Origin: Nitrosopumilus sp.
GTDB lineage: Archaea > Thermoproteota > Nitrososphaeria > Nitrososphaerales > Nitrosopumilaceae
Length of the DNA stretch: 64,000 nucleotides
Assembly: GCA_965205215.1 (NCBI GenBank)
Contig: OZ242041.1
Span: 1,920,001-1,984,000, forward strand
Reading direction: 5' to 3'
Below are positions 9,274 through 62,269 of the stretch, in pieces (the stretch's first letter is position 1; every line of letters starts with the position of its first letter). A model generated the notes under the pieces. It was not told the DNA's origin, did no database searches, and worked only from the letters and a program-made list of their open reading frames with translations. The position numbers were made by a program, and so were the translations under genes.

Positions 9274-10962
9274 TCAGACGGGCAGCGCGACTCCCGCAAG
9301 CCTGTCATAGTACAGCATGCACATTATTGCCACCAGCAGCACCCCCGTGTGCAGGCTGTGCAGTATGGTTGCATGCCTGATCTGCGAGACCAGCACCATC
9401 GAGCAGAACGCCCCCACCACGACAAGCACCAGGTTCAGCTCCGCAAGCAGCCCGCCCAGGTCATACCCCAGGTATGAGGCGCCCGATACCGTTTCGGCGT
9501 CCGGGGCGGCGGAGCCCGCCAGAACGTCGAGCGCTGCGAACTGGTCAAAGCTCATCACCGGGATCATCATAATCATCATCACCACGATGACGGATCCCAT
9601 GTACCCGGTCATCAGCGGCGTCGCGGTCTTGGCCGACATCTCCCTTTTGGTCTCGACGTGGTGCGACGCGAACAGAGCCAGCCTGTCCAGGACGGCGGGC
9701 GTGACAGAGCCGCTACGCGCGGCCTGCGCCATCAGCATCATGACGCAGTCGGCAAGCCACGAGCCCGTGCGCACGTCCCCGAGCGCCCGGGATATCTCGA
9801 CGCCCAGTAGGACGCGGGACTTGACATCCCGCAGGACGGCGTTGAACTGCTCCGTGTACGGGGCCATCCCCTCCGTGGATACGAACGCCGCAAAAAGGCT
9901 CGGGTTTGAGCGCATCTTCTGGTTGATGTCCCTCACGAACGCGGGCACCGACCTCTCCAGGGCCGACATGCCCGCGAGGCGCCCGCGGGACATGCAGTGG
10001 TTTGCGATGCACCATACGGCAAGCGGGACTGCCGCCGTCTCCCACCATGACATGCCAAGCAGGAAGCAGGTTGTGCCCCCGGCGCCCGCCGCCATCACGG
10101 GCATCCTGCGGACGGGTATCCTGCCCGCCGGCACGGGGGATGCTGCCGCCGCCCTTGCCACCAGCACAGCGGTGACGGCGGGCACCGCCAGGATGCCGGA
10201 CGCGCACAGAAACAGGAGCGTGTACTGGTCCATCATTATCCCCCCGACCACGACGAATATCGGGAACATCGCCAGCCCGAACGACCCGACCGTGGCAAGC
10301 ATCTCGGCCGTCGACGCGTACGCGTCCATCCGCTGTCTGGCGGCCGTGTGGTACTCCCGGAGCCTCTCGTGCAGGTATGCCGAGGTGCCGACTCCCCCCG
10401 TGGTCTGCGACACGGCATAGCCGCGCACAAAGTCCCGGAATGCCACAGACGGGTGCGTTGTACCGAGGTCGTGCAGCACGTCTGCAAACGACCTTGAGAA
10501 CACCCGCATCTCGCGGCGTATCACCAGGGACTCGCGGTGCATGGCGGGGAACATCGGGCCGCCGCCCTTGAGCGCCTCAAAGGCGCCGTGCAGCCCGCGG
10601 CCGGTCTTCTCCATTATGTCGCAGTATATGGCAAAAAAGAAGAGCTCCGAGTCCGCGCCGGCCGCCCTCTTGCGCGCGGCATCGCGGAGCCCCGCACCCT
10701 TCATGAAGAACAGGGCCACGGGGGCCGACAGGAACACGAACGCGTGCGGCATTCCCGTTACGGCATACAGGATTACGGAGACGCAGACTGCCGGCATGAC
10801 ACTGAGAAGCGCGGCGCCAACGGATTCCGTGGCCCGCTGGCGCGGGGAGGCCGCGATGCCGGCTACAGGAATGTCCCGCGAGTAGCGCCCCGCGAGGTAT
10901 CGGTGCGCCCGCCTGACGATGCCAAGCCTCAGCATGGCATGCACGGCGCCGCTTGCAATCAT
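9274..10962 (-). CDS. TadC/ArlJ-like (T2SS-F) pilus platform membrane protein
   Basis: Two cytoplasmic GspF-like domains alternating with TM clusters; T9 run just after the stop (9264-9272). Confidence 0.8.
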   Translation of the reverse strand: MIASGAVHAMLRLGIVRRAHRYLAGRYSRDIPVAGIAASPRQRATESVGAALLSVMPAVCVSVILYAVTGMPHAFVFLSAPVALFFMKGAGLRDAARKRAAGADSELFFFAIYCDIMEKTGRGLHGAFEALKGGGPMFPAMHRESLVIRREMRVFSRSFADVLHDLGTTHPSVAFRDFVRGYAVSQTTGGVGTSAYLHERLREYHTAARQRMDAYASTAEMLATVGSFGLAMFPIFVVVGGIMMDQYTLLFLCASGILAVPAVTAVLVARAAAASPVPAGRIPVRRMPVMAAGAGGTTCFLLGMSWWETAAVPLAVWCIANHCMSRGRLAGMSALERSVPAFVRDINQKMRSNPSLFAAFVSTEGMAPYTEQFNAVLRDVKSRVLLGVEISRALGDVRTGSWLADCVMMLMAQAARSGSVTPAVLDRLALFASHHVETKREMSAKTATPLMTGYMGSVIVVMMIMMIPVMSFDQFAALDVLAGSAAPDAETVSGASYLGYDLGGLLAELNLVLVVVGAFCSMVLVSQIRHATILHSLHTGVLLVAIMCMLYYDRLAGVALPV

Positions 10963-47351: not shown

Positions 47352-50300
47352 TCACCTGCAGATTCTCGGGGCGCCCGGCGCGGGTGCGGGGGTGGGCGCG
47401 GGCCCGGCGGGCGGCGGGGATGGCGGCGGTGGCGGCGGCTGCATCACGGCGGGCATGGGCGGCGGCAGGGACACCACGGGGGGCGTGTTGCCGGGCGGCG
47501 GGGTGGAAGCGGCGGCGGCGCCCGACGTTACGAGCGCCGCGTTGCCGCCGGCCCCGACGAACGAGGCCCCCACGGGGGCGCCGGGCGCGGTCTGGACTGG
47601 TATTGAGGAGGACGGGGCTCTGGGCGCCGAGAAGAGGTCGAATGGGGAGGGGAGGGCGTACGAGAGTATGGCGCCGTCGGTAACGGACGCGGCGGTTACG
47701 AGCAGGGTGGCGCCGTCGCCGGATATGGCCACGTCGGATATGACCCCCCAGGGCTTGTCGACGTGGAGGGCGGCCGCGGAGTTGCGGGAGGAGGGGGACG
47801 GGTCAAACGGGGTCGAGAGCACATACGAGAGTATGAACCCGCCGCCTGCCGGGTCGGAGAGGGCGACGTACATTATGGTGCCGTTTGCGGAGAACGCCGC
47901 GCCCGCCGGGGTGGAGAACGCGGACGAGGGGAGCCGGACGGGGGTGGAGGAGGGGAGCATGGAGGCCGTGGAGAGGTCGAAGGGGGTGGAGAGCGCGTAC
48001 TCCAGGATGTAGGCGGTGGTGGTATGGGATGAGGCGGGGACGGGCGGGGGGATGGCGGCGGCGCCTGACGCGAACGCGGGGGCGGCGGGCCGGGAGCCGG
48101 GGGACTGGAGGAGGACCGGGACGGGCGGGGGCGCGGCGGACGCGGACGCGGTGGCGCCGGACACGGTCGTTACGAGCAGTTTCGTGCCGTCCGGCGACAC
48201 CGTGACGCTGGTGGGTACGCCGTACGCGGGGGGGATCCCGACCGTGTCGTTGCGCGGCACGGCCGAGGATGGGTCGTGCGGTATGGGCAGGTCGTAGGCC
48301 AGTATGGTGCCGTTTGATGCCGATGCGACGAACATGACGGAGCCGTGGGCCGACACCGCGATATCCGCGATGGAGGCGCCCGGAAGGGTCACTATGGTGA
48401 CGTTTTCCGGGGACAGGCCGGCGGCGGATGTAGCCGACGCGTTGAGGGGGGCGCCGTTTCTTATCTCTATGGAGAACGCGGCCGACGCCGCGGTCGGGTT
48501 GCCTGCCGCGTCAAGGGCGGCGCCCGCCGGTATCGTTATGGACAGGGTGCCGTCGGCGGGCCTTAGGATGTCAAACGTAAAGACCGTATGGGCGGGCCCC
48601 GCCGCCAGGTTCGCGAGCGTGCCGCTTGATACGTAGACGTCCGACGCGTCAAAGGTTCCGGGCTGGAGGGGCTCGCCGAAGAACGCCATGAACTGGACGG
48701 CGGCCGTGTAGTTGCCCGCGTACGATATGGACGGCACGGGGGCGGTGCGGTCCACTATTATGGTGAGGCTGGCCGGCTGCGTGCTTGCCGTGCCGCCAGA
48801 ACCGGACACGGCGCCCGCCGGTATGGTTACGGTCAGGGCGCCCTCGGCCGGGCTTATGACGTCAAACGTGAACGTGGTGAGGTTGGCCGACGCGGCAAGG
48901 TTTGAGACCGTGCCGCTTGAGGATATGATGTCTGATGTGGTGAGCGAGCCGGGCTGCAGGGGGGCGCCAAACGTGGCCGTCAGGGATATGGTCTGGAGGT
49001 TGGTGCGCGGGGTGGCTCCGGGCGCGGCGGTGGCGCCGCCCGCAAGCGAGATGCCGACGGGCTCGGGCGCGGCCGCCGGCAGGACGGTTACGAGCACGGT
49101 GTCCGTATCCGACGCGCCGCGGTTGTCCCGCACGGTGAGCGTGGCCGTGTAGCCGGTGGAGGACGTGACGTTGGGGGCCGCAAAGGTGGGGGTGGCGGTG
49201 TTCGCGTTGTCAAGCGCCACGAACGGCGAGATCGTCCACGAGTGCGACGCGATGCGGCCGCCCGGGTCGCGGGACGCGGAGCCGTCAAGTGTCACGGTGT
49301 CGCCCCCATATACGGTCTGGTCAGACCCGGCGTCTGCCACGGGCGGCGTGTTCGGCGGCGGGGGCGGGGGCCGGTTCCTGACCGTTACCACGACCTCGTC
49401 GGTGACGGAGCCTTCGCTGTCCGATACCGCAAGGGTGAACGTGTACGCGGTGTTGGAGGACACCCGGGGCGCGGTAAAGGAGGGGGAAACAGTATTCGGG
49501 TTCTGGAGGGTTATGCCCGAGGGGGCAGTCCAGCTGTACGTTATGGCCTCGCCGGTCGGGTCGGAGGACGCCGAGCCGTCCAGCGTGACCGTGGAACCCT
49601 CGGTTACGGTCCGGTCTGCCCCGGCGTCGGCCACGGGGGGCCAGCTGGCAGTCAGGGTGAACGACCGCTCGTTGTTCGTGCCATAGATGCCGGAGCCGCT
49701 CGCCCGGATCGTAATGTCGTACCGGTCCTTTGCCGTGGCGCCGTCTGTGAGTACAATGGACGAGCCTGACCACGTAAAGTGCTGGCCGTCGGGGCCCGCG
49801 ATCGCGTGGGACGTGGCCTGGTTTGACAGGAACGTGTTTTGCGCCCCGACCTGTCCCCCGTACGCGGTGGGGTCCCTGCCCATGTCCGTGCTGCTGAGTG
49901 TGACATACCAGGGCCCCAGGTTCTGGCTGAAGGCGGTGGCAAACGAGAACATGTTGGCCATGCCGGTTGCCGAAGAGACGTCCCACCCGGATATGTCCTG
50001 GTTGAAGACTATGGCGCCCCGGAACATGTTGTCCATGCTCCTCGCGCTTGAGACGTCCCAGTTGGATATGTCGCCGTTGAAGGCGCGGGCGTCCCGGAAC
50101 ATGCCGGCCATGTCGGTTACGCCTGAGACGTCCCATCTTGATATGTCGCCGCTGAAGGCGCTGGTGTCAGCGAACATGCGGTTCATGCTGGTTGCCGAAG
50201 AGGTGACCCACCCGGATATGTCGGAGTTGAAGGCGCGGGCGGCATGGAACATGCTGCGCATGTCGGTTACGCCCGAGACGTCCCAGCTTGATATGTCGCC

Positions 50301-53300
50301 GTTGAAGGCGCGGGCGTCCCGGAACATGCCGGCCATGTTGGTTACGCTCGACGTGGTCCAGCCCGATATGTCGCCGTTGAAGGCGCGGGCGTCCCGGAAC
50401 ATCTCCCCCATGTTGTTCACGCGCGAGAGGTCCGGGGTGTCCGTCGCGTTGTATACCATGTTGCGCGCGCCCTTGAACGCGGCATTCATGGTGGTCCACG
50501 ACATGTTGCCCCACTGGTCGATGCTGAGCAGCTGGTCCGCGTGCGGGCTGGCAAAGGTGTTGCCCAGATGGAACCTCTCAAGGTTGCCCGCAATCCGGAT
50601 GGTATAGTTGCCCGCATTATCGTACGTGTGCCGTATTGCGCCCGCCGCGCCGCCGCTGACGGTGCTGTTGGTGGTGCCGTCGCCCCATGATATGTGCACG
50701 TTGGTGCCGGTTTCTATGGGGATCCGCAGGTCCTTGTCGCTTGCGGGGATGCTCCACGTGGTGACAAAGTTGTCGTCAGAGACCGGAAAGGCGTCCGAAT
50801 TGAATATGGTGAACTGCCGCTCGTGGGTGCCGGTGCCGATCGTGGCGCCGTCCGCCCTGATGGTTACGGAGTACGCGGGCTTGACGGGGGCGCTCCCCTT
50901 TATGGTCAGCGTGTCGTTCGTTACGGTAAAGTGGGCGTTGTCCCCCACGCCTGTCGGAAGCGAGTATTTGGGGTTCCCCGTGAGGTGGCCCTGCATGATA
51001 GAGTTCTGGGCCTCCACGGAGGCAGAGTACGAGCCGCCCGATTTGGTCGTACTGTCGAGTGTGACATACCAGGGCCCCAGGTTCCGGTTGAAGGCGGTGG
51101 CGCCCGCGAATATGCCGCCCATGTCGGTCACGCCCGAGATGTCCCACTCGGATATGTCCTGGTTGAAGGCGGTGGCGCCCCGGAACATGTTCCCCATGTT
51201 GGTCACGTTTGACACGTCCCACCCGGATATGTCCCGGTTGAAGGCGGTGGCGCCCTGGAACATGTTTACCATTAGCTCTACGCCGGAGGTGTCCCATGTG
51301 GATATGTCGCCGTTGAAGGCGCCGGTGCCAAGGAACATGGAGCTCATGAGGTCTACGCTCGAGGTGTCCCAGTCCGAGAGATCCTGGTTGAAGGAGTCGG
51401 CCTCGTTGAACATGCCGACCATGTTGGTCACGCTGGAGGTGTTCCAGCCGGATATGTCCTGGTTGAAGGAGGAGGCGTTCTGGAACATGCGCTTCATGTC
51501 GGTCACGCCCGACACGTCCCAGTTTGATATGTCGCCGTTGAAGGAGATGGCGTCCCGGAACATGTGGCCCATATTGGTCACGCCCGAGAGGTCGGGGGCG
51601 TCCGCCGCGTTGTATACCATGTTGCTTGCTCCACGGAACATGTTCGTCATCTCCGTCCACCGCGTGTCGCCCCACTGGTCCAGGCTGACCACATGGCGGG
51701 CGTTTGAGGGGTCGGAGGCCAAGTGCACCGACAGCCGGAGGACGTCGCCGGAGATCATCACCCGGTAGTCGCCCGCGCTCGCGTACGTGTTGAATGCCCG
51801 GCCCACAGTACCAGAAGATATATTGTCGGAGTTGCCGTCGCCCCAGTCTATGGTGAGCGTGCCGGTTCCTTTTTCATAGTTGAGATCTACCCGCTTGTCG
51901 CCGTCGGTGGCGCGCCACGTGGTGACAAAGGCGTCGGCGGGGAGCCCCCCGAGGTTGTGCGGGTTGGCTATGGTGAACTGCCGCTCGTGCACGCCCGAGC
52001 CGATCGTGCTGCCGTTGGCCCTGACGGTTATGTCGTACGAGGGCTTTGGGATGGCGTGCTCCCTCAGGGACAGCGTGGTGCCGGATATGACAAAGTTGGA
52101 GTTGTCCCCCGCGCCTGCTGGAAGCAGGTATTTTGATCCCATAAGGTGGGGGTCCAAAAGCGAGTTCTGGGTGGACAGGGTGCCCACGACGCGGTCTGCG
52201 CCGACCTCCGTGCCGTTGAGTGTGACATACCAGGGCCCCAGGTTCTGGGAGAAGGAGGTGGCGCCCGCAAATATCTTGTTCATCGAGGTTACGCCGGAGA
52301 TGTCCCACTCCGACACGTCCTGGTCAAAGGAGGTGGCGCCCTCGAACATGGAGTCCATCTTGGTTACGCTTGAGACGTCCCACCCGGACACGTCCCGGTT
52401 GAAGGAGGTGGCGTTGTAGAACATGTTCCTCATGTCGGTTACGCTTGAGACGTCCCACGTGGACACGTCGCCGTTGAAGGAGTCGGCGTCGTAGAACATG
52501 CTGAGCATGGTGGTCACGCGCGCCACGTTCCAGCTTGAGAGGTCCCGGTTGAAGGCGTTGGCCTCGTTGAACATGCCGGCCATCTTGGTTACGCTGCCGA
52601 CGTTCCACCCCGATACGTTGCCGTTGAAGACGTGGGCGTCCTGGAACATGCGCGTCATGGTGGTCACCCTTGAGACGTCCCATGAGGAGAGGTCGCAGTT
52701 GAAGGAGCGGGCGTCGCGGAACATGTGGCTCATGTCGCGCACGTTCTGGAGGCGGGGGGTGTCGTTCGCGTTGCATACCATGTTGTGCGTGTTGCGGAAC
52801 ATGCCGCTCATGTCGCTGAGCCACTGCGAGGTGCCCCACTGCTGCAGGCTGGATACCTGCCGGGCGTTCCCGGCATCGGTGCCCAGGTTTAGGCGCGGAA
52901 GGTTGGTGAGTCGGACGTCGTACGTCTGCGGCGGAAGGTTGTACGTCTTGGACTGGTCGCCGCTAGTTGTGGTTAATCCCGTGCCGTCGCCCCACTGTAA
53001 GGCGTACGAGCCCGTATAGCCGCCCACCGTGATCTTTATCGTGCGGTCGCCGTTGGTGGGGGCGCTCCACCTGAGGATGAGGTCGTTTGCCCCGGCCGCC
53101 TCGGCGGTCTCGGCCGCCGGCACCAAAAGTACGGCGCCTGCCGCCCCCACCCCGATGATCAGGACGGCGGCGAGCACGGACATCATGCGCGCCGCACCGG
53201 GGGCGCGACCGGAGGATGGGGAGGGGGCCGCGGGCCTACCTGGCGCATCATGCCCGCCTACCCTGCCGCTGCCGCGCGCGATCAGGCGCGCGCATAGGCA

Positions 53301-53309
53301 AAACATCAA
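47352..53309 (-). CDS. Giant adhesin 3 (up to 1985 aa): signal peptide, 3 BspA/DUF285 modules, 2 PKD-like, 2 Ig-like, propeller-like YxLSTPFD repeats, Pro-rich tail; start may be ATG 53186
   Basis: MMSVLAAVLIIGVGAAGAVLLVPAAETAEA signal; repeat motifs visible in the translation. Confidence 0.9.
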   Translation of the reverse strand: MMFCLCARLIARGSGRVGGHDAPGRPAAPSPSSGRAPGAARMMSVLAAVLIIGVGAAGAVLLVPAAETAEAAGANDLILRWSAPTNGDRTIKITVGGYTGSYALQWGDGTGLTTTSGDQSKTYNLPPQTYDVRLTNLPRLNLGTDAGNARQVSSLQQWGTSQWLSDMSGMFRNTHNMVCNANDTPRLQNVRDMSHMFRDARSFNCDLSSWDVSRVTTMTRMFQDAHVFNGNVSGWNVGSVTKMAGMFNEANAFNRDLSSWNVARVTTMLSMFYDADSFNGDVSTWDVSSVTDMRNMFYNATSFNRDVSGWDVSSVTKMDSMFEGATSFDQDVSEWDISGVTSMNKIFAGATSFSQNLGPWYVTLNGTEVGADRVVGTLSTQNSLLDPHLMGSKYLLPAGAGDNSNFVISGTTLSLREHAIPKPSYDITVRANGSTIGSGVHERQFTIANPHNLGGLPADAFVTTWRATDGDKRVDLNYEKGTGTLTIDWGDGNSDNISSGTVGRAFNTYASAGDYRVMISGDVLRLSVHLASDPSNARHVVSLDQWGDTRWTEMTNMFRGASNMVYNAADAPDLSGVTNMGHMFRDAISFNGDISNWDVSGVTDMKRMFQNASSFNQDISGWNTSSVTNMVGMFNEADSFNQDLSDWDTSSVDLMSSMFLGTGAFNGDISTWDTSGVELMVNMFQGATAFNRDISGWDVSNVTNMGNMFRGATAFNQDISEWDISGVTDMGGIFAGATAFNRNLGPWYVTLDSTTKSGGSYSASVEAQNSIMQGHLTGNPKYSLPTGVGDNAHFTVTNDTLTIKGSAPVKPAYSVTIRADGATIGTGTHERQFTIFNSDAFPVSDDNFVTTWSIPASDKDLRIPIETGTNVHISWGDGTTNSTVSGGAAGAIRHTYDNAGNYTIRIAGNLERFHLGNTFASPHADQLLSIDQWGNMSWTTMNAAFKGARNMVYNATDTPDLSRVNNMGEMFRDARAFNGDISGWTTSSVTNMAGMFRDARAFNGDISSWDVSGVTDMRSMFHAARAFNSDISGWVTSSATSMNRMFADTSAFSGDISRWDVSGVTDMAGMFRDARAFNGDISNWDVSSARSMDNMFRGAIVFNQDISGWDVSSATGMANMFSFATAFSQNLGPWYVTLSSTDMGRDPTAYGGQVGAQNTFLSNQATSHAIAGPDGQHFTWSGSSIVLTDGATAKDRYDITIRASGSGIYGTNNERSFTLTASWPPVADAGADRTVTEGSTVTLDGSASSDPTGEAITYSWTAPSGITLQNPNTVSPSFTAPRVSSNTAYTFTLAVSDSEGSVTDEVVVTVRNRPPPPPPNTPPVADAGSDQTVYGGDTVTLDGSASRDPGGRIASHSWTISPFVALDNANTATPTFAAPNVTSSTGYTATLTVRDNRGASDTDTVLVTVLPAAAPEPVGISLAGGATAAPGATPRTNLQTISLTATFGAPLQPGSLTTSDIISSSGTVSNLAASANLTTFTFDVISPAEGALTVTIPAGAVSGSGGTASTQPASLTIIVDRTAPVPSISYAGNYTAAVQFMAFFGEPLQPGTFDASDVYVSSGTLANLAAGPAHTVFTFDILRPADGTLSITIPAGAALDAAGNPTAASAAFSIEIRNGAPLNASATSAAGLSPENVTIVTLPGASIADIAVSAHGSVMFVASASNGTILAYDLPIPHDPSSAVPRNDTVGIPPAYGVPTSVTVSPDGTKLLVTTVSGATASASAAPPPVPVLLQSPGSRPAAPAFASGAAAIPPPVPASSHTTTAYILEYALSTPFDLSTASMLPSSTPVRLPSSAFSTPAGAAFSANGTIMYVALSDPAGGGFILSYVLSTPFDPSPSSRNSAAALHVDKPWGVISDVAISGDGATLLVTAASVTDGAILSYALPSPFDLFSAPRAPSSSIPVQTAPGAPVGASFVGAGGNAALVTSGAAAASTPPPGNTPPVVSLPPPMPAVMQPPPPPPSPPPAGPAPTPAPAPGAPRICR

Positions 53310-53310
53310 A

Positions 53311-53476
53311 TTACAATGCCCATTGTAAGGCGGAATCTGGGGTTACATGCGGGTTTGACGTGGGCACCATAGGCGAAATCCCGCCTTATGGCGCGCAAAA
53401 GGCGGGCAGACCGCCTCGTAATACTTATATGTTTACTGCAAGAGTTCATAATCGTGCTTTACAATGGGCATTGTAA
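53311..53476. promoter_or_regulatory. Pair of inverted 21-bp sites flanking a TATA-containing segment (candidate invertible promoter or twin operators)
   Basis: TTACAATGCCCATTGTAAGGC (53311-53331) versus the reverse complement of 53456-53476, TTACAATGCCCATTGTAAAGC (20/21); CTTATATG at 53424-53431. Confidence 0.7.
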
Positions 53477-53858
53477 AGCCACAATAGGGCTATGAACGCA
53501 GACAGGCCGCGCGAATCCCCGTCCGGACGCAAAAACGTGCCAGGCAGGCCATTCGCGCCTGCACGGGAGGGCGCCGGGCGGGGCGGGCACGAAAGCGCCG
53601 CGAACTTTTGGACATCACGATATAAGCGGTTGTGACGTATATGGAATCATGAAAAAGGGCTGGGTGGCGGCCCCGGCGGCTGCCGAATCCGGGGGCGGGC
53701 GGATGCGCCGCGAAGGGGGGCGTTCCAAATCCATGCGGCGCGCCGCGGGGGAACCCCGCGGCCCCTGCCCCGCAACATGCCACGGCGACGGTGACGGCGC
53801 GCGCGGGAGGTGACAGGCGCTGGAGGCCGGCAACGCACGCGCGGGGCCCTACTATGAA

Positions 53859-55469
53859 GTGCTGCGCCCCGCGGTTAAAGACGACCTGGGGGCGGCGGCG
53901 GCCGACCCCGGCATCACGCGGATACTGGAGTCGCTGCCTACGGCCGGGTTCGTGTCGGCAGACCGGCTGCAGGGGGAGCGCCACACCGTGGAGCGCGCCA
54001 TACAGTGGGCGTGCTCCCGCGGGATCATGCAAAAGACCGGCCTGGGCGGCCGCGTGATGGACCTGGAGAGCGCCAGGTTCTGGATAGGCCAGCTTGGCAA
54101 GTCGAGAATGAAGAACGTGAACGGAAACGGGGGGACCAGGCGCGCGTACGTGGAGGAGCTCGAGTCGTTCAACGAGTGGCTGCGGGGGGCAGAGTTCCCG
54201 GCGGGGCACGGAGGGCCGTTTGCCGACGTCGAGGCGCTGCTCAGGTTCTGCGAGGCGGGCGGCGCGCATGCGGCAAGGCGCGCCATCAGGCAGTACATGT
54301 CAGAGTCCGCGGGAGCGGGATACTCCATAAACACGGCCATACTAAGGTGCTCGGCCATCAAGTCGTACTTTGCCGCGCACGACATACCCGTAAGCCTGAG
54401 GGTCGACAAGAGGCGCTACGCGACGCACGACGTCCGGGACGACTCGGAGATGACCCTGATGGACTTTTACAAGATGGTGACGGCGGGCGGGACGGACGCC
54501 ATGGCGCGCGCCGTGATGATGGCAAAGTTCCAGGCGGGGCTGGACTCCAGCACCATGGCCGACAGGTTCAACTTTGAGGCGTACCCCCAGATGACAAAGT
54601 ACTTTGGGGCGGACGACCACGCCGCGTGGGACCTCGGCAGGTGCCCCGTCCCCATAAGGCTGGTCAGGGTCAAGACCGGCATGCAGTACACCACGTTCCT
54701 GGACAGGGACGCCGTGTCATGCTTGCAGGACTACCTGGGGTGGAAAAAGGAGGCGCGCGGCCGGGAGCAGGGCGGGGACGACCCCATGTTCGAGACCCGG
54801 CGCGGGACGCCGGTCAGCTCCAACTGGGTGTCGGCAAAGTTTTCGACGGCCGCCATGAACGCGGGCATACAGAGAAAGGTCACCCCCCGCATGTACAAGA
54901 TCAGGTCCCACGAGGTGCGCGATTTGCTGAAAAGCACGCTGATCGCGTCGGGGTGCGCCGCATACGTGGCAGACCACGTGCTGGGCCACTCCCCGCGCGA
55001 CTCTTACGAAAAGCAGGCGGCGCTGTACCCGGAGACGCTGCGCTCAGAGTATGCAAAGGCGTCGTGGAGGATCAACGTGTTCAGCAGCTTTGAGAGGCAC
55101 CTGGACTCGGCCGCGGCCCTTCCGCGGACGGGGCGCGACAGGACGGGGCCCGCGGCCGGGGCGGAGGGGGAGGGGCCGCGGCCGGAGGGCGCGTATGCAG
55201 GGAGCCGGATGCCGGACGCGCAGGCGCTGTTGCTGCAGCAGATGCAGCAGCAGATGCAGCAACAGCAGCAGATGCAGATGCAGATGCAGCAACAGATGCA
55301 GCAACAGCAGCAGGCCATGCAGTCCGAGATCCAGAAGATGAGGCGCGACATGGCGTATGCGGCCGGGGTCAGGCGGGCTGGCAAAAATACCGACCCCATG
55401 CCCGACGGGGCGGCGCGCAGGCTACAAGACCTGCCGGAAGACGACAGTGACGGCGGGACAACGGCGTGA
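53859..55469 (+). CDS. Tyrosine recombinase/integrase with Gln/Met-rich coiled-coil tail
   Basis: VRVKTG (catalytic K), SHEVR (HxxR), LGH and DSY (nucleophile); core-binding-like YSINT..LRCSAIKSYF; frame is open back to TGA 53811-53813. Confidence 0.85.
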   Translation: MLRPAVKDDLGAAAADPGITRILESLPTAGFVSADRLQGERHTVERAIQWACSRGIMQKTGLGGRVMDLESARFWIGQLGKSRMKNVNGNGGTRRAYVEELESFNEWLRGAEFPAGHGGPFADVEALLRFCEAGGAHAARRAIRQYMSESAGAGYSINTAILRCSAIKSYFAAHDIPVSLRVDKRRYATHDVRDDSEMTLMDFYKMVTAGGTDAMARAVMMAKFQAGLDSSTMADRFNFEAYPQMTKYFGADDHAAWDLGRCPVPIRLVRVKTGMQYTTFLDRDAVSCLQDYLGWKKEARGREQGGDDPMFETRRGTPVSSNWVSAKFSTAAMNAGIQRKVTPRMYKIRSHEVRDLLKSTLIASGCAAYVADHVLGHSPRDSYEKQAALYPETLRSEYAKASWRINVFSSFERHLDSAAALPRTGRDRTGPAAGAEGEGPRPEGAYAGSRMPDAQALLLQQMQQQMQQQQQMQMQMQQQMQQQQQAMQSEIQKMRRDMAYAAGVRRAGKNTDPMPDGAARRLQDLPEDDSDGGTTA

Positions 55470-55863
55470 CGGCGCGCTGCATGACGCGGCAGTACGGTAT
55501 GGTTCTCCAAGCCTTCCAAGGATGCGAATCCCGGGGCGTCCCACCCGGTCGCTTTCAGGGCCAATGCCTGTCAGGCGTCCGCTAGAATCGCGGTGTTAGC
55601 CCGGGTTTGGCGGCAGTTCCACCACCACCACCTCCACCACCACCTCCACCACCACCTCCACCACCGCTGTTCTACCCCGGCGTGCCCAGCAGGCGCCCCA
55701 CCTCCTCTGGCACCCGCCGGACCCACCCGTCGAGCTCCACCAGTCCGTCGTGTATACCTGACAGGTGCCGCAGGTCGCATGCCATGAGCCGGTTCGAGAC
55801 CCAGGCAGCAGGGCCGGACACCGCCACGTCTTGGCGCCAGCAGCGCAGCCCGCGGCCGGGCCG

Positions 55864-57348
55864 CTACTCGTTCAGCCTGCCCACCGTGAGTATGGTATCG
55901 CCCACGTCCACGCCGACGTGCGACGAGGCCGGCGCGCCGCCTGCGAACCCGCGGGGGCTGTAAGACATGGAGATCCTGCCGTCGACCGTTATGACGTCCC
56001 CGGTCTCCACGTCGGCCTCAAGCCACCCGTCCAGCTGGCCGCCGTATGCCCACGCGGCCTCTATGTCCCCGGTCAGTCGGTACAGGCAGTTGTAATAGTA
56101 CGTCTCAAAGCCCGTCCTTGCCAGCTCCACGTCCCTTGCAAAGGACTCGGCGGGCGCGGCCGTCCCCAGCGGGGCGGACTGGACGGTATGGCCGTCGTTC
56201 TGCATGCGCACGGACGCGGAGAACACGGGTTTGGGCATGCTGTCCTCCCACGACTTGAGCCGGTCGTCCACGGTATCGTGGAATTCTGAAAGGCAGTCGC
56301 ACGGGTTGGTCGAGTGGGCCCTGTTGTCTACGCAGCGAAAATCCGCACCAAAGTCGTATGCGGCGCCGGCCGTCCCCGCATACGGGGTCTCGACGCGGAC
56401 CGCCATCTTACCCGCATACGGGGCCGTCACACTGCCGCTTATCGGAAACGTCACTCTAACGTCATAGTCCGCGTTGCTCCGGACCACCTGGAACACGTCC
56501 GGGTGGCCCTGCAACGGTGCGATGCCCGCCGGGTATGCGGGCGCGCCCGGGTCGTGCCCGAAGTTGGAGCAGGGTTCGTACTGGTGGTGGCGGCCCGGCT
56601 TGATCTTCTCGCCCGCCTCCCAGTAATACCACGCGGGACTTCCGGCAGGCCTCGGTGTCGCGCCCCCGAGCCCGCTGTCAGACACCAGGAAGGGACTGTC
56701 GTATATGAGGTGCTTTTCCCATCTGGTGTACCACGACTCCCCGGGCTTGACGTACGAAACCTTGCAGAATATGCCGCTGTCCGAGTGGTGGTACGCGATT
56801 ACCGTGTCGGCCCCCCTCTGGCTTGCCGAGCCCCCGTCCAGGCTCATGACCGCCACGTGCCCGAACGAGTTTGCGGGGGCGGCCGGCGCCGGCGGGACGG
56901 CCCTGTCAATGGTGAATATGATGCCCTGCGCCGTCACACCCCGGAACGTATGATCCTCGTCATCCAGGAGGGCCGCCATGCCGCTTGGGAGCGGTGGTGG
57001 TGGCGGCTGACCCGTCCCGCCCCCCGCCGCGCCCGTCAGGTTCTGCGCCCGGTACGCGGGCACCGTATAGTTGACGTGCCATGCGCCCGACAGCGTCCCG
57101 TTCTCGTAGCCCCGGAACTGGATCACGGTCACGTCTTTCGCGATGTTGTTGGTGATTACGACATATTCGCCGTCGTGGATCTCGCCATGCACGCGTGACG
57201 ATGACGCAGACGGGCCGGACGCCCCCGCCCTCTCCAGCATGTCCCGCTGGATCTCCCCGAGCTCGGCCTGCTGCTCGAGCCCCGCGTATATGCCGTACAG
57301 CCCTAGGGTGATCAGCGACACCATTCCGATGACTATGATTGGGTTCAT
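55864..57348 (-). CDS. Membrane-anchored minor-pilin/ArlF-G-like protein with Cys-containing C-terminal domain
   Basis: N-terminal TM plus amphipathic helix plus VVITNN..DVTVIQ beta motif; pilus-gene context. Confidence 0.55.
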   Translation of the reverse strand: MNPIIVIGMVSLITLGLYGIYAGLEQQAELGEIQRDMLERAGASGPSASSSRVHGEIHDGEYVVITNNIAKDVTVIQFRGYENGTLSGAWHVNYTVPAYRAQNLTGAAGGGTGQPPPPPLPSGMAALLDDEDHTFRGVTAQGIIFTIDRAVPPAPAAPANSFGHVAVMSLDGGSASQRGADTVIAYHHSDSGIFCKVSYVKPGESWYTRWEKHLIYDSPFLVSDSGLGGATPRPAGSPAWYYWEAGEKIKPGRHHQYEPCSNFGHDPGAPAYPAGIAPLQGHPDVFQVVRSNADYDVRVTFPISGSVTAPYAGKMAVRVETPYAGTAGAAYDFGADFRCVDNRAHSTNPCDCLSEFHDTVDDRLKSWEDSMPKPVFSASVRMQNDGHTVQSAPLGTAAPAESFARDVELARTGFETYYYNCLYRLTGDIEAAWAYGGQLDGWLEADVETGDVITVDGRISMSYSPRGFAGGAPASSHVGVDVGDTILTVGRLNE

Positions 57349-57357
57349 GGGGCATGG

Positions 57358-58173
57358 TCACCTGACAAGCTCATACTCGTGCATGATCCTCGGATCCTCA
57401 GATATGCTGCCGGGGTCGTGCCACCTGCTGTATTCCGGAAACGGCATGCCAGATATGATGGCGGTCCGCGACTCTGCGGCCGTGTCATACCCGAGTATGG
57501 ACTTGTCCCCGGCCCGCGATATTATCGAGAGGGGCACGCTGTAAAAGTACGCGTCAATGTCCCCCCAGTGCGCCCCCACCTGCAGGCCCTGCCCCCCGTA
57601 CGGGGCCAGGTGCAAAACCGTATTCTGTATGGAGTCCGCCAGCCACACGTCCCACGCGGACGTGGGGTGCACGGCCATCGTATCGTGGGCAAGAAGCATC
57701 ACGGTGCTTTTGTTATCAAAGCCCACGTCCATTACCCAGACGGGGCCGTACGCGTGGTGCACCATCCGGTGTACGAAGTCCATGCGCAGCGTATAGCAGG
57801 GATCCGGGTAGGTCGCCTCATATGCGTGCACGCTGTTGCATACGCTATACGTGTAGGAGTCGCCCGCCGCCAGGTTCTCGCCCAGGCGCCAGGTCGTAGG
57901 CAGGGGAGCGGCGGAAGGCGGCGCCGTGTATGATGGCAGCGTTGCTGACTGCCCACCGTCATGCGACCCGGGCCCCGCGCCCGGACCGGCCGCGGACTGG
58001 GCGGTCTCCCCCACGGCCACGGCCGCGCCAAGGCATAGCAGGGCCGCGACCACAGTCATGCAGGCAAGGAATGAAAGAAGGACGGGGGCACGGCGGCCGT
58101 CCGGGGCATGGGGCGCCCCGGGCGCACGTTTCCATGTGCGTATGACGGCAGGGTGTCGGCTCACTGTCTGCAA
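57358..58173 (-). CDS. Secreted hypothetical protein; start uncertain
   Basis: Hydrophobic VLLSFLACMTVVAALLCLGAAVAVG followed by a globular WRLGENLAAGDSYTYSVC domain. Confidence 0.65.
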   Translation of the reverse strand: MQTVSRHPAVIRTWKRAPGAPHAPDGRRAPVLLSFLACMTVVAALLCLGAAVAVGETAQSAAGPGAGPGSHDGGQSATLPSYTAPPSAAPLPTTWRLGENLAAGDSYTYSVCNSVHAYEATYPDPCYTLRMDFVHRMVHHAYGPVWVMDVGFDNKSTVMLLAHDTMAVHPTSAWDVWLADSIQNTVLHLAPYGGQGLQVGAHWGDIDAYFYSVPLSIISRAGDKSILGYDTAAESRTAIISGMPFPEYSRWHDPGSISEDPRIMHEYELVR

Positions 58174-58608
58174 GGCCGCTTTTTGTTAAAAGTGCGGATT
58201 TTCAGGTTGCGGGGGCGCGGCCGGTTCGCGGCGACGGCGGCGAAGGTCATGCACCGCGCGGCGCGGCCCCGGTACCGCAGGCCCAGATTACGCGCGAAAA
58301 ATCATAGAGTTCTATGACTCTTCGCGCGCATGGGCCAATCTCCGTGCCGGGGAGCGGACCGTTCCAGGCGCGAATCCCGGCCCGTGTCCTTCACGTCCGT
58401 ACCGGAACGCGGGCATGCGCGCCAAGTATGACGGGTGTGCGCGGCGCCAAGGGCCATGCGGAGTAGTGGTGGTGACGGCGGCGGGGAGGATCACCGGACG
58501 CGAGCCAGGATCGCGTCCCACAAAAACTTGCGCATCCCGGATCCGGGGCGGGGCGGGCGCCCACGCGTGCACGCGGCGCGCCGGCCGCGGCGGACGCGCC
58601 GCGTGCTG

Positions 58609-58788
58609 CTAGTCTGCGGCGGCAACAACAACGTCCGGCACGGCCCGCAGTATCAGGGACTTGCCCTTCGTCTTCTGGACGTAGACGTAGGTGTGTTTTT
58701 TCCACCCGAGTTCCTTGACGAGGTCCGCCGGGAGGCTCACGCCCCACGACCCCCCGCTCTTCTGGATTATCTTACGAATCAGCACCAT
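58609..58788 (-). CDS. AbrB/MazE/SpoVT-type DNA-binding protein, 59 aa (absent from the ORF track)
   Basis: Manual translation: MVLIRKIIQKSGGSWGVSLPADLVKELGWKKHTYVYVQKTKGKSLILRAVPDVVVAAAD. Confidence 0.85.
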   Translation of the reverse strand: MVLIRKIIQKSGGSWGVSLPADLVKELGWKKHTYVYVQKTKGKSLILRAVPDVVVAAAD

Positions 58789-58927
58789 CCGTCACAAATG
58801 CGGAAAGCGTAAAAGGGCAAAAGGGCCGGCGCGGGCGCATCCCCCCTCCCGGCATGCCCGCCCCGCCGCCATGCTTCGGGCGCCGCGGGCCGTTCATGCC
58901 AAAAACATCATACGGTAATGTACCCTA

Positions 58928-59839
58928 ATGGAGAGGCAGATTACAAAAACATCAAATACAAAGGGCGTCACTGTTACTGGCATGGATGCCACAGTCCCAA
59001 AACGCACCACATGCGGCACGTCCCCCAAACGCCACGCGAGGCAAAAGGCGGCCGTGGACGCCTGCGCGCACGACGCCCGGTACGAGACGTCCACCCCCGA
59101 GGGGGAGATCGTCTGCCGCGCGTGCGGGATGGTCAAGGGAATGGACGGCCAGCAGCAGATGTACGCGGATTCCGCGGCGCTCCCGCGCACGCGCACCAAC
59201 CTGTACCTGGAGATGGAAGTGGGCGGCAAGCCGGACCCGAGGCTCAGGGCCGACAGGTTCGTGCGCCGCGGGCACGACATGGCGGCGGTCAGCAACATAT
59301 CGCAAAAGCTTGGAATCCCAAACAGCGCGGGCAGGGACGCGTGGGCGTGGTACCGGAGGCTGCGCCGCGCGCCGGGCATGCGCATGACAAAGGCAAAGCT
59401 CCTGGTGCTGGCGTTTCACGGCGTCTGCAGGGCGTGGGGCCACCCGCTAAACGAGGCCAGGCTGCGGGATGCCATACGCATGGAGCTGGGCGTGAGGCAC
59501 GCGCACTCGTACCTGCGCGTCATAATGGAGGCCTCGTCGTACGTGGACGGGGAAACCGGGGAGCACGTGCTGCGCAGGATAGGGTTCCTCGACATGACCG
59601 GGCGCGGCACGTCCGGTGGCGGCGGCGACGCCAGGCCCCCGCTACCGTCCCCGTCGAGCGCATTCTCCATAAGCACCGAGATCCAGTCCCTGGGACACGA
59701 GTACGAGCCCGGGATCGCAGAGGCGCTGGCACGCGAGGCGCGCGCCATACTCCCCGTGCTGGAGCAGAGGGAGTCCAACCGGGCGCGGGCGGCGCGCGCC
59801 GCCGTGCGCATAGCCAAGAGGAGGTACGGGGCGCTATGA
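58928..59839 (+). CDS. Divergent TFB/TFIIB-like protein (Zn ribbon + cyclin-like helices)
   Basis: CAH...EGEIVCRACGMV Zn ribbon; VSNISQKLGIP..A...Y cyclin-repeat-like segment. Confidence 0.65.
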   Translation: MERQITKTSNTKGVTVTGMDATVPKRTTCGTSPKRHARQKAAVDACAHDARYETSTPEGEIVCRACGMVKGMDGQQQMYADSAALPRTRTNLYLEMEVGGKPDPRLRADRFVRRGHDMAAVSNISQKLGIPNSAGRDAWAWYRRLRRAPGMRMTKAKLLVLAFHGVCRAWGHPLNEARLRDAIRMELGVRHAHSYLRVIMEASSYVDGETGEHVLRRIGFLDMTGRGTSGGGGDARPPLPSPSSAFSISTEIQSLGHEYEPGIAEALAREARAILPVLEQRESNRARAARAAVRIAKRRYGAL

Positions 59840-60939
59840 GCGCAGAAAGCACGCAGGGGCGGCGACGGCAGGTCCGCACCGCGTCCATACGATACCACGA
59901 TCTCGACGTTACGGTCCCGCTGCAAAAGCACGTGGACGCGTACAGACGCATCTTTGCAGAGGCGGCGTCCGGACAGCCGCCCCGCGCAGGCAGGATCCCG
60001 GCAGTCAGGGTGGGCGACGTGGGCGGCACCCTGTACCTGATGGCAGACGGCGACGTGTACCGCGGGGCCATGGCGGCGGGCGCCGAGTCGATCAGGTGTA
60101 CGGTCATAAAATGCGCCGACGTATCCGACTTTCTTGTGAGGCACGTCGAGTGCAACCACAGGCCCGCGGGGATCAACCCGCTCCTCCTGCGGAGGGTGTC
60201 AGACTACGTGGCCGCACACGGAAGCGGGGAGGAGTCGGCCGCCCTGTCGCGCATATGCGGCGGGACCATACACCAAAAGTTCATCGCGCTGGACCTGGAG
60301 CCCAAGGCCGCCGCCATACTGGGCGGGCTCTGCGAGTTTCTGGGCTCAAGGCTGTCACAGTTCGTGCTGCCGTACTACATACCGCACCACATATCGAAGC
60401 AGAAGCCGGGCATGCAGGCGGAGCTGGCCGAAAAGGTGTCCGGGCTGGTGAGGGCGCGCACCGTAACCGACGCCCGCTTTGCATGGCCCAGCCACGAGGA
60501 GGTAAGTATGATATCCGACACCCCGCGGTACCGCGCGGGGGAGGAGGAAAAACCCGCCGTAGTGACGCCGGACGGAGAGCGGCCGTCCCCCAGGGAGGTG
60601 CGGCGCGCCAAGAAGCTGATCAAAAACGCGCGCGACGTCATCGCAATCCCGGGGACCGACGCGCACCCGCCATACCTCATAGACCTCAAGGCAAAGCGCG
60701 CCTCCATTGTGGATGACCGCAGAACGGTCACGGTCCTCAGGGACGCGGACCCGGAGGGCGCCGGCGCCGCCATGACGTACCTGTTCCCGCGCGAGGCCGG
60801 CAGATGGCTGGGGCTCTCAGGCGGGGAGGCAGACGGCTCGGACGTGGAGATGGTGCAGTTCGACGCGTCTACAAACCTGGCGGACTTTGCGAAGAAGCAC
60901 CGCGGCGCGCGCGGGGTCGTGTTCTACAGGAGGGCCTAG
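59836..60939 (+). CDS. ParB/Srx-like N-terminal domain protein (degenerate), 367 aa
   Basis: ATG 59836 overlaps the upstream stop (ATGA); IPAVRV...LYLMADGDVYRGAM..GAESIRC...N..INPL pattern. Confidence 0.55.
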   Translation: MSAESTQGRRRQVRTASIRYHDLDVTVPLQKHVDAYRRIFAEAASGQPPRAGRIPAVRVGDVGGTLYLMADGDVYRGAMAAGAESIRCTVIKCADVSDFLVRHVECNHRPAGINPLLLRRVSDYVAAHGSGEESAALSRICGGTIHQKFIALDLEPKAAAILGGLCEFLGSRLSQFVLPYYIPHHISKQKPGMQAELAEKVSGLVRARTVTDARFAWPSHEEVSMISDTPRYRAGEEEKPAVVTPDGERPSPREVRRAKKLIKNARDVIAIPGTDAHPPYLIDLKAKRASIVDDRRTVTVLRDADPEGAGAAMTYLFPREAGRWLGLSGGEADGSDVEMVQFDASTNLADFAKKHRGARGVVFYRRA

Positions 60940-61587: not shown

Positions 61588-62269
61588 GCTGGTCCGGCTG
61601 CTCATGGTGCTGGGCGTGCTGGCGGCAAACTCGTATACCGACATCAGATATAGGACCATACTCGGGAGCGACCGGCATTATGCGTGTATGGGTGGCGTCG
61701 GACTTGCTCTGTTCCTGCTGGACGGCGGATGGGCGGACGCGGGCGCCCTGTTCGGGACGGCGGCGGGAGTCACGCTCGCCCTGGTGTTGTACAGGTGCAG
61801 GGCGGTGGCCTCCGGCGACTGCATAATCCTGCTGATAGTCTCGGTCACGCTGCCCACGGCGTTTGGCGTACCGTTTCTGCCCGTTCTGGCAGGTTTGTTT
61901 GGCATCACCATACTGGCGTTTGCGGTGGTGGGATACAACGTGGCGCTGAACGTGTCGCATGCGGCGGGGCTGTACCGGCACCCGGCGGCGGGACGCCGGC
62001 CCTTCTCCTCGTGCGGGGCCGCAGGCATCCCCAAAAAGGCGGCCGCGTTCTTTGCGGCGCACCACAAAAGGAGGTGGGAGAGGCACGTGGTCCGCATCGA
62101 CGACGGACGGGGCAGCCTCTCGCTGCGCGCAACATCCGTGGGCACAAGGAGGTGGGAAACGGGGGAGGGGGAGGGGCGGCCGGTGATGGTGGCGGCCCCC
62201 GTAGTGCCGTTTCTGCTGGTGTCGACGATTCTGCTGCTACTGACACTGCACCCGGTGCTTGCGGCCTAG
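61577..62269 (+). CDS. Prepilin peptidase, A24 family (PibD/ArlK-like)
   Basis: SYTDIRYRTI and ASGDC aspartate motifs, multiple TMs, C-terminal APVVPFL. Confidence 0.8.
   Translation: MDTELVRLLMVLGVLAANSYTDIRYRTILGSDRHYACMGGVGLALFLLDGGWADAGALFGTAAGVTLALVLYRCRAVASGDCIILLIVSVTLPTAFGVPFLPVLAGLFGITILAFAVVGYNVALNVSHAAGLYRHPAAGRRPFSSCGAAGIPKKAAAFFAAHHKRRWERHVVRIDDGRGSLSLRATSVGTRRWETGEGEGRPVMVAAPVVPFLLVSTILLLLTLHPVLAA

Follow-up and report, generated by a model that had tools for sequence, protein, structure and literature searches.

A 130-bp intergenic segment of a Nitrosopumilus sp. genome lies between two short palindromic sites in mirrored orientation, with a row of giant surface-protein genes on one side and a gene for a divergent tyrosine recombinase on the other. 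It belongs to a 64,000-nt stretch (the window; C1:1920001-1984000) of a genome assembled as one contig of 2,098,239 bp with 60% G+C, whose small- and large-subunit rRNAs (SSU and LSU) fit archaeal models. We interpret this arrangement, which recurs at other loci, as a family of tyrosine-recombinase invertible promoters, caught in one (probably OFF) state. The balance between this interpretation being right and being wrong is about even in our judgment, because inversion was unobserved and promoter direction is only predicted. Recombination partner sites are, on the sequence, the reading that explains most (site anatomy, recurrence, recombinase adjacency, and mirrored spacers), and since promoter-like sequence lies inside the segment, an invertible promoter would be their natural function. 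The features concerned, in window coordinates, are the following.

14857-47345, minus strand: four giant genes co-directional with the next one (DUF285, PKD, FG-GAP, fn3, and cadherin-like domains)
47352-53186, minus strand: first giant surface-protein gene (DUF285 x6 and PKD), with its likely start at ATG 53186 and its reading frame open to 53309
53311-53328: adhesin-side core site TTACAA-TGCCCA-TTGTAA, TTACAATGCCCATTGTAA, with 6-bp dyad arms and a 6-bp spacer, self-dyad at 16 of 18 positions
53329-53458: candidate invertible piece, the 130-bp interior between both core sites
53415-53432, plus strand: best match to the archaeal promoter motif (B recognition element and TATA box, BRE/TATA) by a matrix from tRNA genes, score 12.1, directed towards the recombinase and including CTTATATG
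53421-53438, minus strand: weaker promoter-like match by the same matrix, score 10.4, directed towards the adhesin
53459-53476: recombinase-side core site TTACAA-TGGGCA-TTGTAA, TTACAATGGGCATTGTAA, a 24-bp palindrome including flanks save for the central GG
53477-53493: flank outside the recombinase-side site, AGCCACAATAGGGCTAT, conserved in the related modules B and C/E/F
53859-55469, plus strand: divergent tyrosine recombinase P0, with a GTG start and about 530 aa

The earlier note on this DNA had described two mirrored sites, a TATA-like box between them, and a recombinase gene about 380 bp to their right, and all three are in place. Taken with three flanking bases, the site arms are 21 nt long, complementary at 20 of 21 positions, and separated by 124 nt; compared as direct repeats, the same arms agree at 18 of 21 positions. 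As 18-bp sites, the left site and the reverse complement of the right site are identical throughout (18/18). The box CTTATATG stands at 53424-53431, and the recombinase open reading frame (ORF) begins 383 bp beyond the right site. The pair did not arise by chance: TTACAATGNNCATTGTAA, with up to three mismatches, has two matches in the window, while two or more matches occurred in 0 of 100 shuffles; exact copies in the whole genome are limited to these two sites, with two further places (183602 and 1652799) when up to two mismatches are allowed; and the reversed pattern, used as a genome-wide control, gave no match. The same palindrome standing singly at many promoters, which had been named as the sign of a transcription factor (TF) operator, was not seen when we looked for it, exact copies being confined to the window. 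A common operator of a TF regulon was accordingly rejected, as the exact motif occurs only at the two window sites and no regulator gene recurs beside the related site pairs described below.

Searches of the genome returned four more such site pairs, here called modules, and a sixth was found in a relative. We designate the pair in the window module A, those elsewhere in this genome B (61698), C (1227655), E (981722), and F (1109720), and that in the relative (G002) D. Their interiors lie at 61714-61844 (B), 1227673-1227798 (C), 981740-981864 (E), and 1109738-1109863 (F) and, for D, at C1:138690-138840 of G002. Blastn of the intergenic region against its own genome gave a 181-nt stretch, about 71% identical, at 61700-61879, where the sites of module B, TCATAATGCCCATTATGA and TGATAATGGGCATTATGA, lie 149 bp apart. 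Module C came from a paired-palindrome search (1227651-1227820, 148-bp spacing) and is flanked by the recombinase paralogue P3 and a gene for a 2652-aa secreted protein; module D is flanked by an 1825-aa minus-strand ORF and a recombinase homologue. A degenerate paired pattern found five modules in this genome versus none for its reversed control, and the core motif A[CT]AATG..CATT[GA]T occurs four times in the genome, each time inside module A or B. Spacing between sites is nearly constant in the five (148, 149, 148, 147, and 148 bp) and is 167 bp in D.

The modules share their surroundings. All six immediately precede a giant gene for a secreted or DUF285/PKD protein, and three (A with P0, C with P3, and D) lie 0.2 to 0.9 kb from a recombinase of P0's family, so that the link between site pair and recombinase first noticed in the window recurs in three of six modules at no more than 0.9 kb from a paralogue or homologue. 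The recombinase P1 lies 22 kb from module B, behind a divergent array, and E and F have no adjoining recombinase. Recombinases and giant genes are the only recurrent neighbors; we found no TF gene common to the module neighborhoods, and next to E and F stand a DndB-like gene and an Mrr fragment but no DNA-binding regulator. Modules C, E, and F are about 90% identical to one another over a stretch that starts about 25 nt outside one site and passes the module and leader (more than 170 nt past the other site) into the giant gene, and A and B stay alike for 17 nt past the right site. A miniature inverted-repeat or other small transposon was rejected, given this C/E/F homology beyond the repeats and the position of all copies before giant genes, and no target-site duplication was found at module A, where the flanks differ. 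A tRNA-linked attachment site was rejected, as the window holds no tRNA gene, and so was a chromosomal dif site, as there are ten sites in five pairs and not a single one per replicon.

Two of these neighborhoods have features of their own. In G002, about nine GGCAGGTTTGGG units stand in tandem (L105:5800-5915) between module D and its recombinase gene, and after them comes a TATA-like box, some 30 nt ahead of the recombinase start. Next to module C, on the side of the recombinase, a stretch of about 160 nt at 1227494-1227654 (L131:1340-1500, minus strand) that is partly conserved beside F folds well as RNA (z = -3.55, with 1 of 200 shuffles as good) and has no Rfam match; it could be a small RNA made from the outward-facing promoter of module C.

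The sites of the different modules were then compared, and they read as follows.

Module A: TTACAA-TGCCCA-TTGTAA
Module B: TCATAA-TGCCCA-TTATGA
Modules C, E, and F: GCATAA-GGATCA-TTATAC, with the partner GCATAA-TGATCC-TTATGC in C
Module D: TCATAA-TGGCTA-TTATGC

The parse into 6-bp arms around a 6-bp asymmetric spacer, which had been proposed for the window pair, extends to the five further modules, with three different spacers (TGCCCA, GGATCA, and TGGCTA), each mirrored between partners. In all six modules the partner spacers are identical at six of six positions in inverted comparison and at four of six in direct comparison. Every spacer is palindromic save for one base-pair position, and that position differs among the three spacer types. 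Full sites match between partners at 15 to 18 of 18 positions across the six modules, with mismatches confined to the outer arm positions. All 12 sites are dyads, self-complementary at 12 to 16 of 18 positions. Half-sites agree within a module (four of four TTACAATG in A and three of four TCATAATG in B) and differ between modules, so the arms appear to have changed in concert. Recombination partner sites would explain both the dyad and the mirrored asymmetry, because the crossover region must match between partners. A symmetric TF dimer explains only the dyads, and a long-range RNA helix explains only the mirrored asymmetry.

The gene beside module A had been taken for a tyrosine recombinase, an assignment that both profile and structure comparisons uphold. 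P0 matches Pfam Phage_integrase (PF00589) at 31.9 bits, above the cutoff of 27.1 (E = 1.4e-7; model positions 58-157 of 172), while its match to the NCBIfam XerA model (34 bits; cutoff, 220) and those to XerC and XerD lie far below the cutoffs. An AlphaFold2 model computed from a 17-sequence alignment reached a mean pLDDT of 73.9, and when it was compared with the PDB by Foldseek, 32 matches were obtained at E <= 0.001, led by XerA (5hxy and 4a8e), lambda integrase, Cre, XerH, and Tn1549 Int at a probability of 1.0. As modeled, P0 has the two-domain (core-binding plus catalytic) tyrosine recombinase fold. Five residues of catalytic type (the canonical set being R-K-H-R-H/W-Y), namely, K272, H351, R354, H377, and Y383, are invariant in the 17 family members. 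The C-terminal tails vary among the recombinase paralogues; that of P0 (window 55209-55316) is a glutamine/methionine-rich repeat of CAGCAGATG units, of which residues 452-507 are predicted to form one long helix, and it is the source of spurious Rfam and PDB matches. A serine invertase was considered, since an 8+2+8 reading of the sites resembles the 2-bp-core hix/gix crossover site, and was rejected: PF00239 had no match in this genome, in a search that was positive in 12 of 14 control genomes.

Five copies of the family are present in the genome, namely, P0, P1 (at 84430), P2 and P3 (in tandem at 1223-1227 kb), and a distant P4 (at 602 kb). P1, P2, and P3 are 79 to 86% identical to one another, P0 is 65 to 69% identical to them, and this divergence goes with the arms, which are TTACAA in A and xCATAA in B and C. 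P1 to P3 start with ATG and have in common about 200 nt upstream, where good promoter matches lie; P0 has neither that start nor that upstream DNA; homology of P0 to its paralogues starts at 53842, with no promoter match from the module to its GTG. Public data hold at least 310 relatives of P0, the closest being 77% (P0002) and 75% (P0003) identical; the relatives and their loci are mostly from Nitrosopumilaceae, and several genomes have four to eight family matches. About 360 bp past the recombinase gene begins a segment (window 55833-60000) that is duplicated, at 84 to 87% identity, at 667320-671392 of the genome; no Pfam family matches its ORFs at 55864-57348 and 57358-58173 (minus strand).

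P0 to P4 are not the sole candidate recombinases, given a second, very divergent integrase-like family. One member lies at 1128891-1130138 (minus strand; PF00589, 22.3 bits, below the threshold; XerA, 33 bits), and others lie at about 883.0, 964.8, 702.8, 1998.9, 1990.5, 908.3, and 628.5-629.5 kb, which makes nine matches at eight places. Some are near tRNA genes (703688 and 909286), as expected of integrated mobile elements. Clusters of a fully symmetric 16- to 18-bp palindrome (ATCATAGAGCTCTATGAT and variants, spaced 124 to 392 bp apart) occur at 625522-626183, 959180-959404, and 1127772-1128372, two or three of them within a few kilobases of genes of this second family. These clusters look like operator or iteron arrays, unlike the modules with their fixed spacing and asymmetric spacers.

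On the other side of module A, five co-directional genes occupy 14857-53309 (about 38 kb), with gaps of 6, 102, 129, and 41 nt. The left site had been described as abutting the start of the first of them at 53309. The ORF is indeed readable from TTG 53309, but the ATGATG at 53186 opens a hydrophobic, signal-like N terminus (MMSVLAAVL) and is the likely start, which places the site about 125 nt upstream of the gene. The paralogous gene at module B has the same type of start, 125 nt from its site; it encodes 5140 aa with DUF285/PKD/fn3 domains, and its N-terminal region is 50% identical to that of the window adhesin. We infer the labels "adhesin" and "operon" from repeat domains, co-direction, and gene spacing, and gene spacing alone suggests that the whole 38-kb array might be controlled as one unit. 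An integron-like platform was dropped from consideration, the gaps of 6 to 129 nt between the giant genes having no palindromic sites. The giant-gene row and a 1129-aa ORF unmatched in Pfam are followed downstream by a gene (window 9274-10962, minus strand) whose T2SSF domain is that of a pilus or secretion platform protein.

To predict promoters, we used a position weight matrix (PWM) built from 42 tRNA upstream regions of this genome, in most of which the BRE/TATA motif begins 37 to 45 nt ahead of the 5' end of the tRNA; a score of at least 12 is reached at 1.7e-4 of genome positions. The highest-scoring match in modules A, B, C, E, and F (12.1, 13.4, 15.7, 13.4, and 13.6, respectively) begins 102 to 105 nt from the adhesin-side site and faces away from the adhesin. 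The geometry of the tRNA promoters puts the predicted start at the inner edge of the recombinase-side site, which in A means about 53453-53460. Scores on the opposite strand are 0.4 to 4.6 bits lower in A, B, C, and E (10.4 in A and 11.1 in C), and F has none of 9 or more. From 53100 to 53900, no other position in A scores 10 or more save for one match overlapping the left site, and the GC-rich stretch between that site and the adhesin start has no promoter match. If the PWM is right, all five modules are assembled with the predicted promoter turned from the giant gene. An inner promoter had been supposed to drive the adhesins; as assembled, its predicted direction points away from them. In E and F the best promoter match faces no obvious target. 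A predicted promoter that faces away from the giant gene, with no target in E and F, fits an OFF state better than it fits a fixed promoter.

Together, these features suggest how an invertible promoter might operate here. The two sites, which are mutually inverted, would be the core recombination sites of the adjoining tyrosine recombinase; it would bind each of them at the pair of 6-bp arms, with crossover in the 6-bp spacer that the arms enclose. Recombination between the sites would flip the 130-bp interior and, with it, the promoter-like sequences found in the 670 bp between the genes. As assembled, the best promoter match would direct transcription towards the recombinase from a start where the interior meets the right site; once inverted, it would drive transcription across the left site and along the 125-nt leader into the first of the five giant genes. 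The three site types may match the recombinase paralogues P0, P1, and P2/P3, which would suggest phase-variable expression of several giant adhesin arrays. More tentatively, and with somewhat more doubt than belief, we consider a multilocus Nitrosopumilaceae system in which paralogues of a lineage-specific, highly divergent tyrosine recombinase family, each perhaps with its own type of invertible 148-bp BRE/TATA cassette, would switch several giant adhesin arrays independently, all five cassettes being OFF in the assembled genome; these arrays exceed 100 kb of coding DNA here.

Several observations weigh against an invertible promoter. Evidence on inversion came from Logan contigs of runs from one study, possibly that of the source sample; contigs drop rare variants. 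In run X1 (depth, 35), 52600-54400 is present in one piece and in the reference orientation only; contigs of run X2 (depth, 21) cross the module, again in the reference orientation only; neither run has a joint at either site, and X3 had no matching contigs. The reference orientation is thus the major one, and the contigs show no more than that. Comparison of related modules points the same way: module interiors align with one another only if each keeps its orientation to the flanks (z = 20.6 for A-B, 5.6 for B-C, and 3.0 for C-D, with flipped alignments reaching at most 1.6), C, E, and F are collinear, and all six modules are in a single orientation. Contigs and collinear modules therefore present only the reference state. 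A freely switching element would be expected in both states, and a single state speaks against switching that is both frequent and unbiased; a static element would predict it, and a strongly biased switch is compatible with it. The second orientation sought in the earlier note was thus not seen, either in contigs of two runs from one study or in the six collinear modules. The central idea of the note, that inversion toggles the adhesin array, gains from the recurrence, the mirrored spacers, and the recombinase linkage and loses from the lack of a second orientation. A flipped interior in module C, suspected from one alignment, was unsupported when scored against shuffles. Separately, X2 contigs break at 53727-53878, where depth goes from 21.4 to 8.95 to 13.3 and the homology of P0 to its paralogues starts (53842); the cause of this break may be heterogeneity among strains or a branch that the paralogues introduce into the assembly graph where module and recombinase region meet.

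The spacers, the predicted promoters, the recombinase, and the distribution of modules add to these difficulties. The caveat that orientation depends only on the central CC/GG holds, and in none of the modules does orientation depend on more than a single base-pair position of the spacer, or two bases per site. Were inverted and direct arrangements equally likely, all three independent spacer types would be inverted with a chance of about 1 in 8, and C, E, and F are recent copies, which limits the spacer argument. Promoter direction is a PWM prediction alone; the opposite strand scores nearly as high in B (13.0 versus 13.4) and E (12.4 versus 13.4), direction in D is ambiguous, and B has an extra adhesin-facing match overlapping its outer arm. 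In P0, the place expected for the first catalytic Arg (G-L-x-S-S-T-L), mapped by eye, is the invariant D229. Activity of P0 is not certain because the canonical first Arg is apparently this Asp; its part might be taken by R236 (conserved at 90% or more) or by R270, which is invariant, and on its sequence an active P0 is plausible though not assured. Modules are also rare at related loci: we found one among 19 recombinase-homologue loci of relatives and one, at the same G002 place, among 63 species-representative loci (a set obtained by an alignment search, a single-protein search having given none).

Wider searches for modules gave little beyond background. The degenerate pattern has one match each in 5 of 100 other genomes of the genus, and the control pattern is matched in 6 genomes, so genus-wide matches are at background level, G002 excepted. 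BLAST of 53295-53500 against 60 genus genomes gave short chance-level matches, in a search insensitive enough to miss module B in this genome too. The strict pattern AATGSSCATT...AATGSSCATT had only two unrelated matches in 400 genomes of the family, and an 18-mer scan of metagenome contigs returned 67 loci, none paired at about 148 bp; the sole double match among them (L060) is a direct tandem with a symmetric center in unrelated DNA.

The alternative that draws most on these points is a static regulatory region, with a fixed promoter and paired dyads bound by a dimeric or tetrameric protein, either a TF or a recombinase-like protein acting as a repressor, and dyads about 14 helical turns apart that could close a repression loop. 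We regard this as rather unlikely, though it has much in its favor: the single orientation of the contigs and of all six modules, a predicted start on the recombinase-side site (where archaeal repressors commonly bind), a distance between sites of 148 or 167 bp that comes close to whole helical turns, the near-perfect dyad of every site, and the apparent replacement of the canonical Arg-I in P0. A static operator leaves unexplained, however, that the palindrome is absent from other promoters (two exact copies, and four core motifs, all in A and B), that the modules have no regulator gene in common, and that the best promoter match in E and F faces away from the giant gene with no obvious target. 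A symmetric dimer also gives no cause for one mirrored asymmetry to be kept through three spacers.

The sites could instead be recombination sites of this family that have another role or are inactive relics, such as remnants of the integration or excision of mobile DNA that brought in the giant genes, sites of resolution, or sites of exchange among C, E, and F. The many copies of the family (five here and four to eight in several relatives) are typical of mobile-element integrases, P0 is without the start and upstream region common to P1 to P3, the segment to the right of P0 is duplicated elsewhere, and the same site occurs at three places, C, E, and F. An attachment site, though, has a single core, where here two inverted cores stand at a distance of 148 bp; the window is free of tRNA genes; and the homology of C, E, and F runs into the gene, as if the module had moved with the 5' end of the gene and not as a repeat-bounded element. 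With linkage to a giant gene in six of six modules as well, we consider such a role improbable. Least probable, to the point that we give it little credence, is a helix or set of hairpins in RNA or single-stranded DNA, formed by the pairing of the sites in a leader or small RNA, with the changes between modules as covariation. Left and right sites are complementary over 18 to 21 nt and have stayed so through those changes, yet left-right pairing needs no palindromic strands and 12 of 12 sites are dyads. Moreover, transcription is predicted to start inside the site pair, so that the two sites have no predicted transcript in common; modules A, B, C, E, and F have no Rfam match; and the linkage to recombinase genes is left unexplained. 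A known RNA family was rejected, as the only Rfam matches were low-complexity ones in the Q-rich tail of P0.

An invertible promoter, the interpretation we favor, has clear counterparts in bacteria. In fimS of Escherichia coli, the invertible promoter of type 1 fimbriae, a promoter segment of about 300 bp lies between inverted repeats upstream of adhesion genes, with the tyrosine recombinases FimB and FimE adjoining. Our module resembles it in having a short segment with a predicted promoter, inverted repeats, surface genes, and an adjoining tyrosine recombinase, and a population mostly in one state would fit. It differs in its putative promoter, which would be of the archaeal BRE/TATA type, in its 130-bp segment, and near-perfect dyads with a 6-bp spacer asymmetric at one position, and also in its very divergent recombinase of about 530 aa and in that inversion was unobserved. 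Invertible promoters with tyrosine recombinases are well known in bacteria, according to the parts of this literature available to us; in Clostridioides difficile (RecV) and Bacteroides, as those parts describe, one or a few such recombinases serve several short invertible promoters (PMC7446863, PMC5903667, and PMC4747536). On that account a recombinase need not adjoin each switch, as E and F here have none nearby. The bacterial systems differ in their sigma-type promoters, in their repeats, and in that both orientations were shown by reads and PCR. Xer/dif offers another likeness: dif sites have two inverted arms with a 6-bp spacer between them (PMC2958812, in the portion available), and XerA is the best structural match of P0. 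In contrast, dif is single per chromosome, lies away from xer, and has 11-bp arms, where we find inverted pairs at five loci, beside giant genes and recombinase genes. The arm bases beside the spacer presumably also resemble those of dif.

Archaeal precedents are few. As given in the accessible part of a long-read study (PhaVa), 12 putative invertons, 10 of them intergenic, came from 42 archaeal data sets, and inversion is called "minimally investigated in Archaea" (PMC10028968). Those invertons, as far as that text specifies, are from Euryarchaeota and Crenarchaeota and are read based, and ours is in Nitrosopumilaceae, rests on sequence anatomy, and has no read support. Another study reports, in its available text, none in 6 archaeal data sets (PMC5903667), and a cellular promoter switch is absent from the available parts of a review of archaeal tyrosine recombinases (PMC8371274) and of a survey of mobile elements in Thaumarchaeota (PMC6563490). 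Within the accessible portions of the literature, supplements aside, we found no such switch in Nitrosopumilaceae.

Phase variation by promoter inversion is a central route of surface variation in bacteria and is barely documented in archaea. If our interpretation is true, ammonia oxidizers of the Nitrosopumilaceae would bet-hedge the expression of very costly giant adhesins, and, should the multilocus system hold, the modules would be the first invertible-promoter network described in ammonia-oxidizing archaea and a clear instance of promoter inversion at work with archaeal transcription machinery. They would also represent a new family of recombinases and sites, the latter minimal and almost symmetric, and a natural system in which the flipping of a BRE/TATA promoter redirects archaeal transcription. 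With five modules and three site types in one genome, the idea is directly testable.

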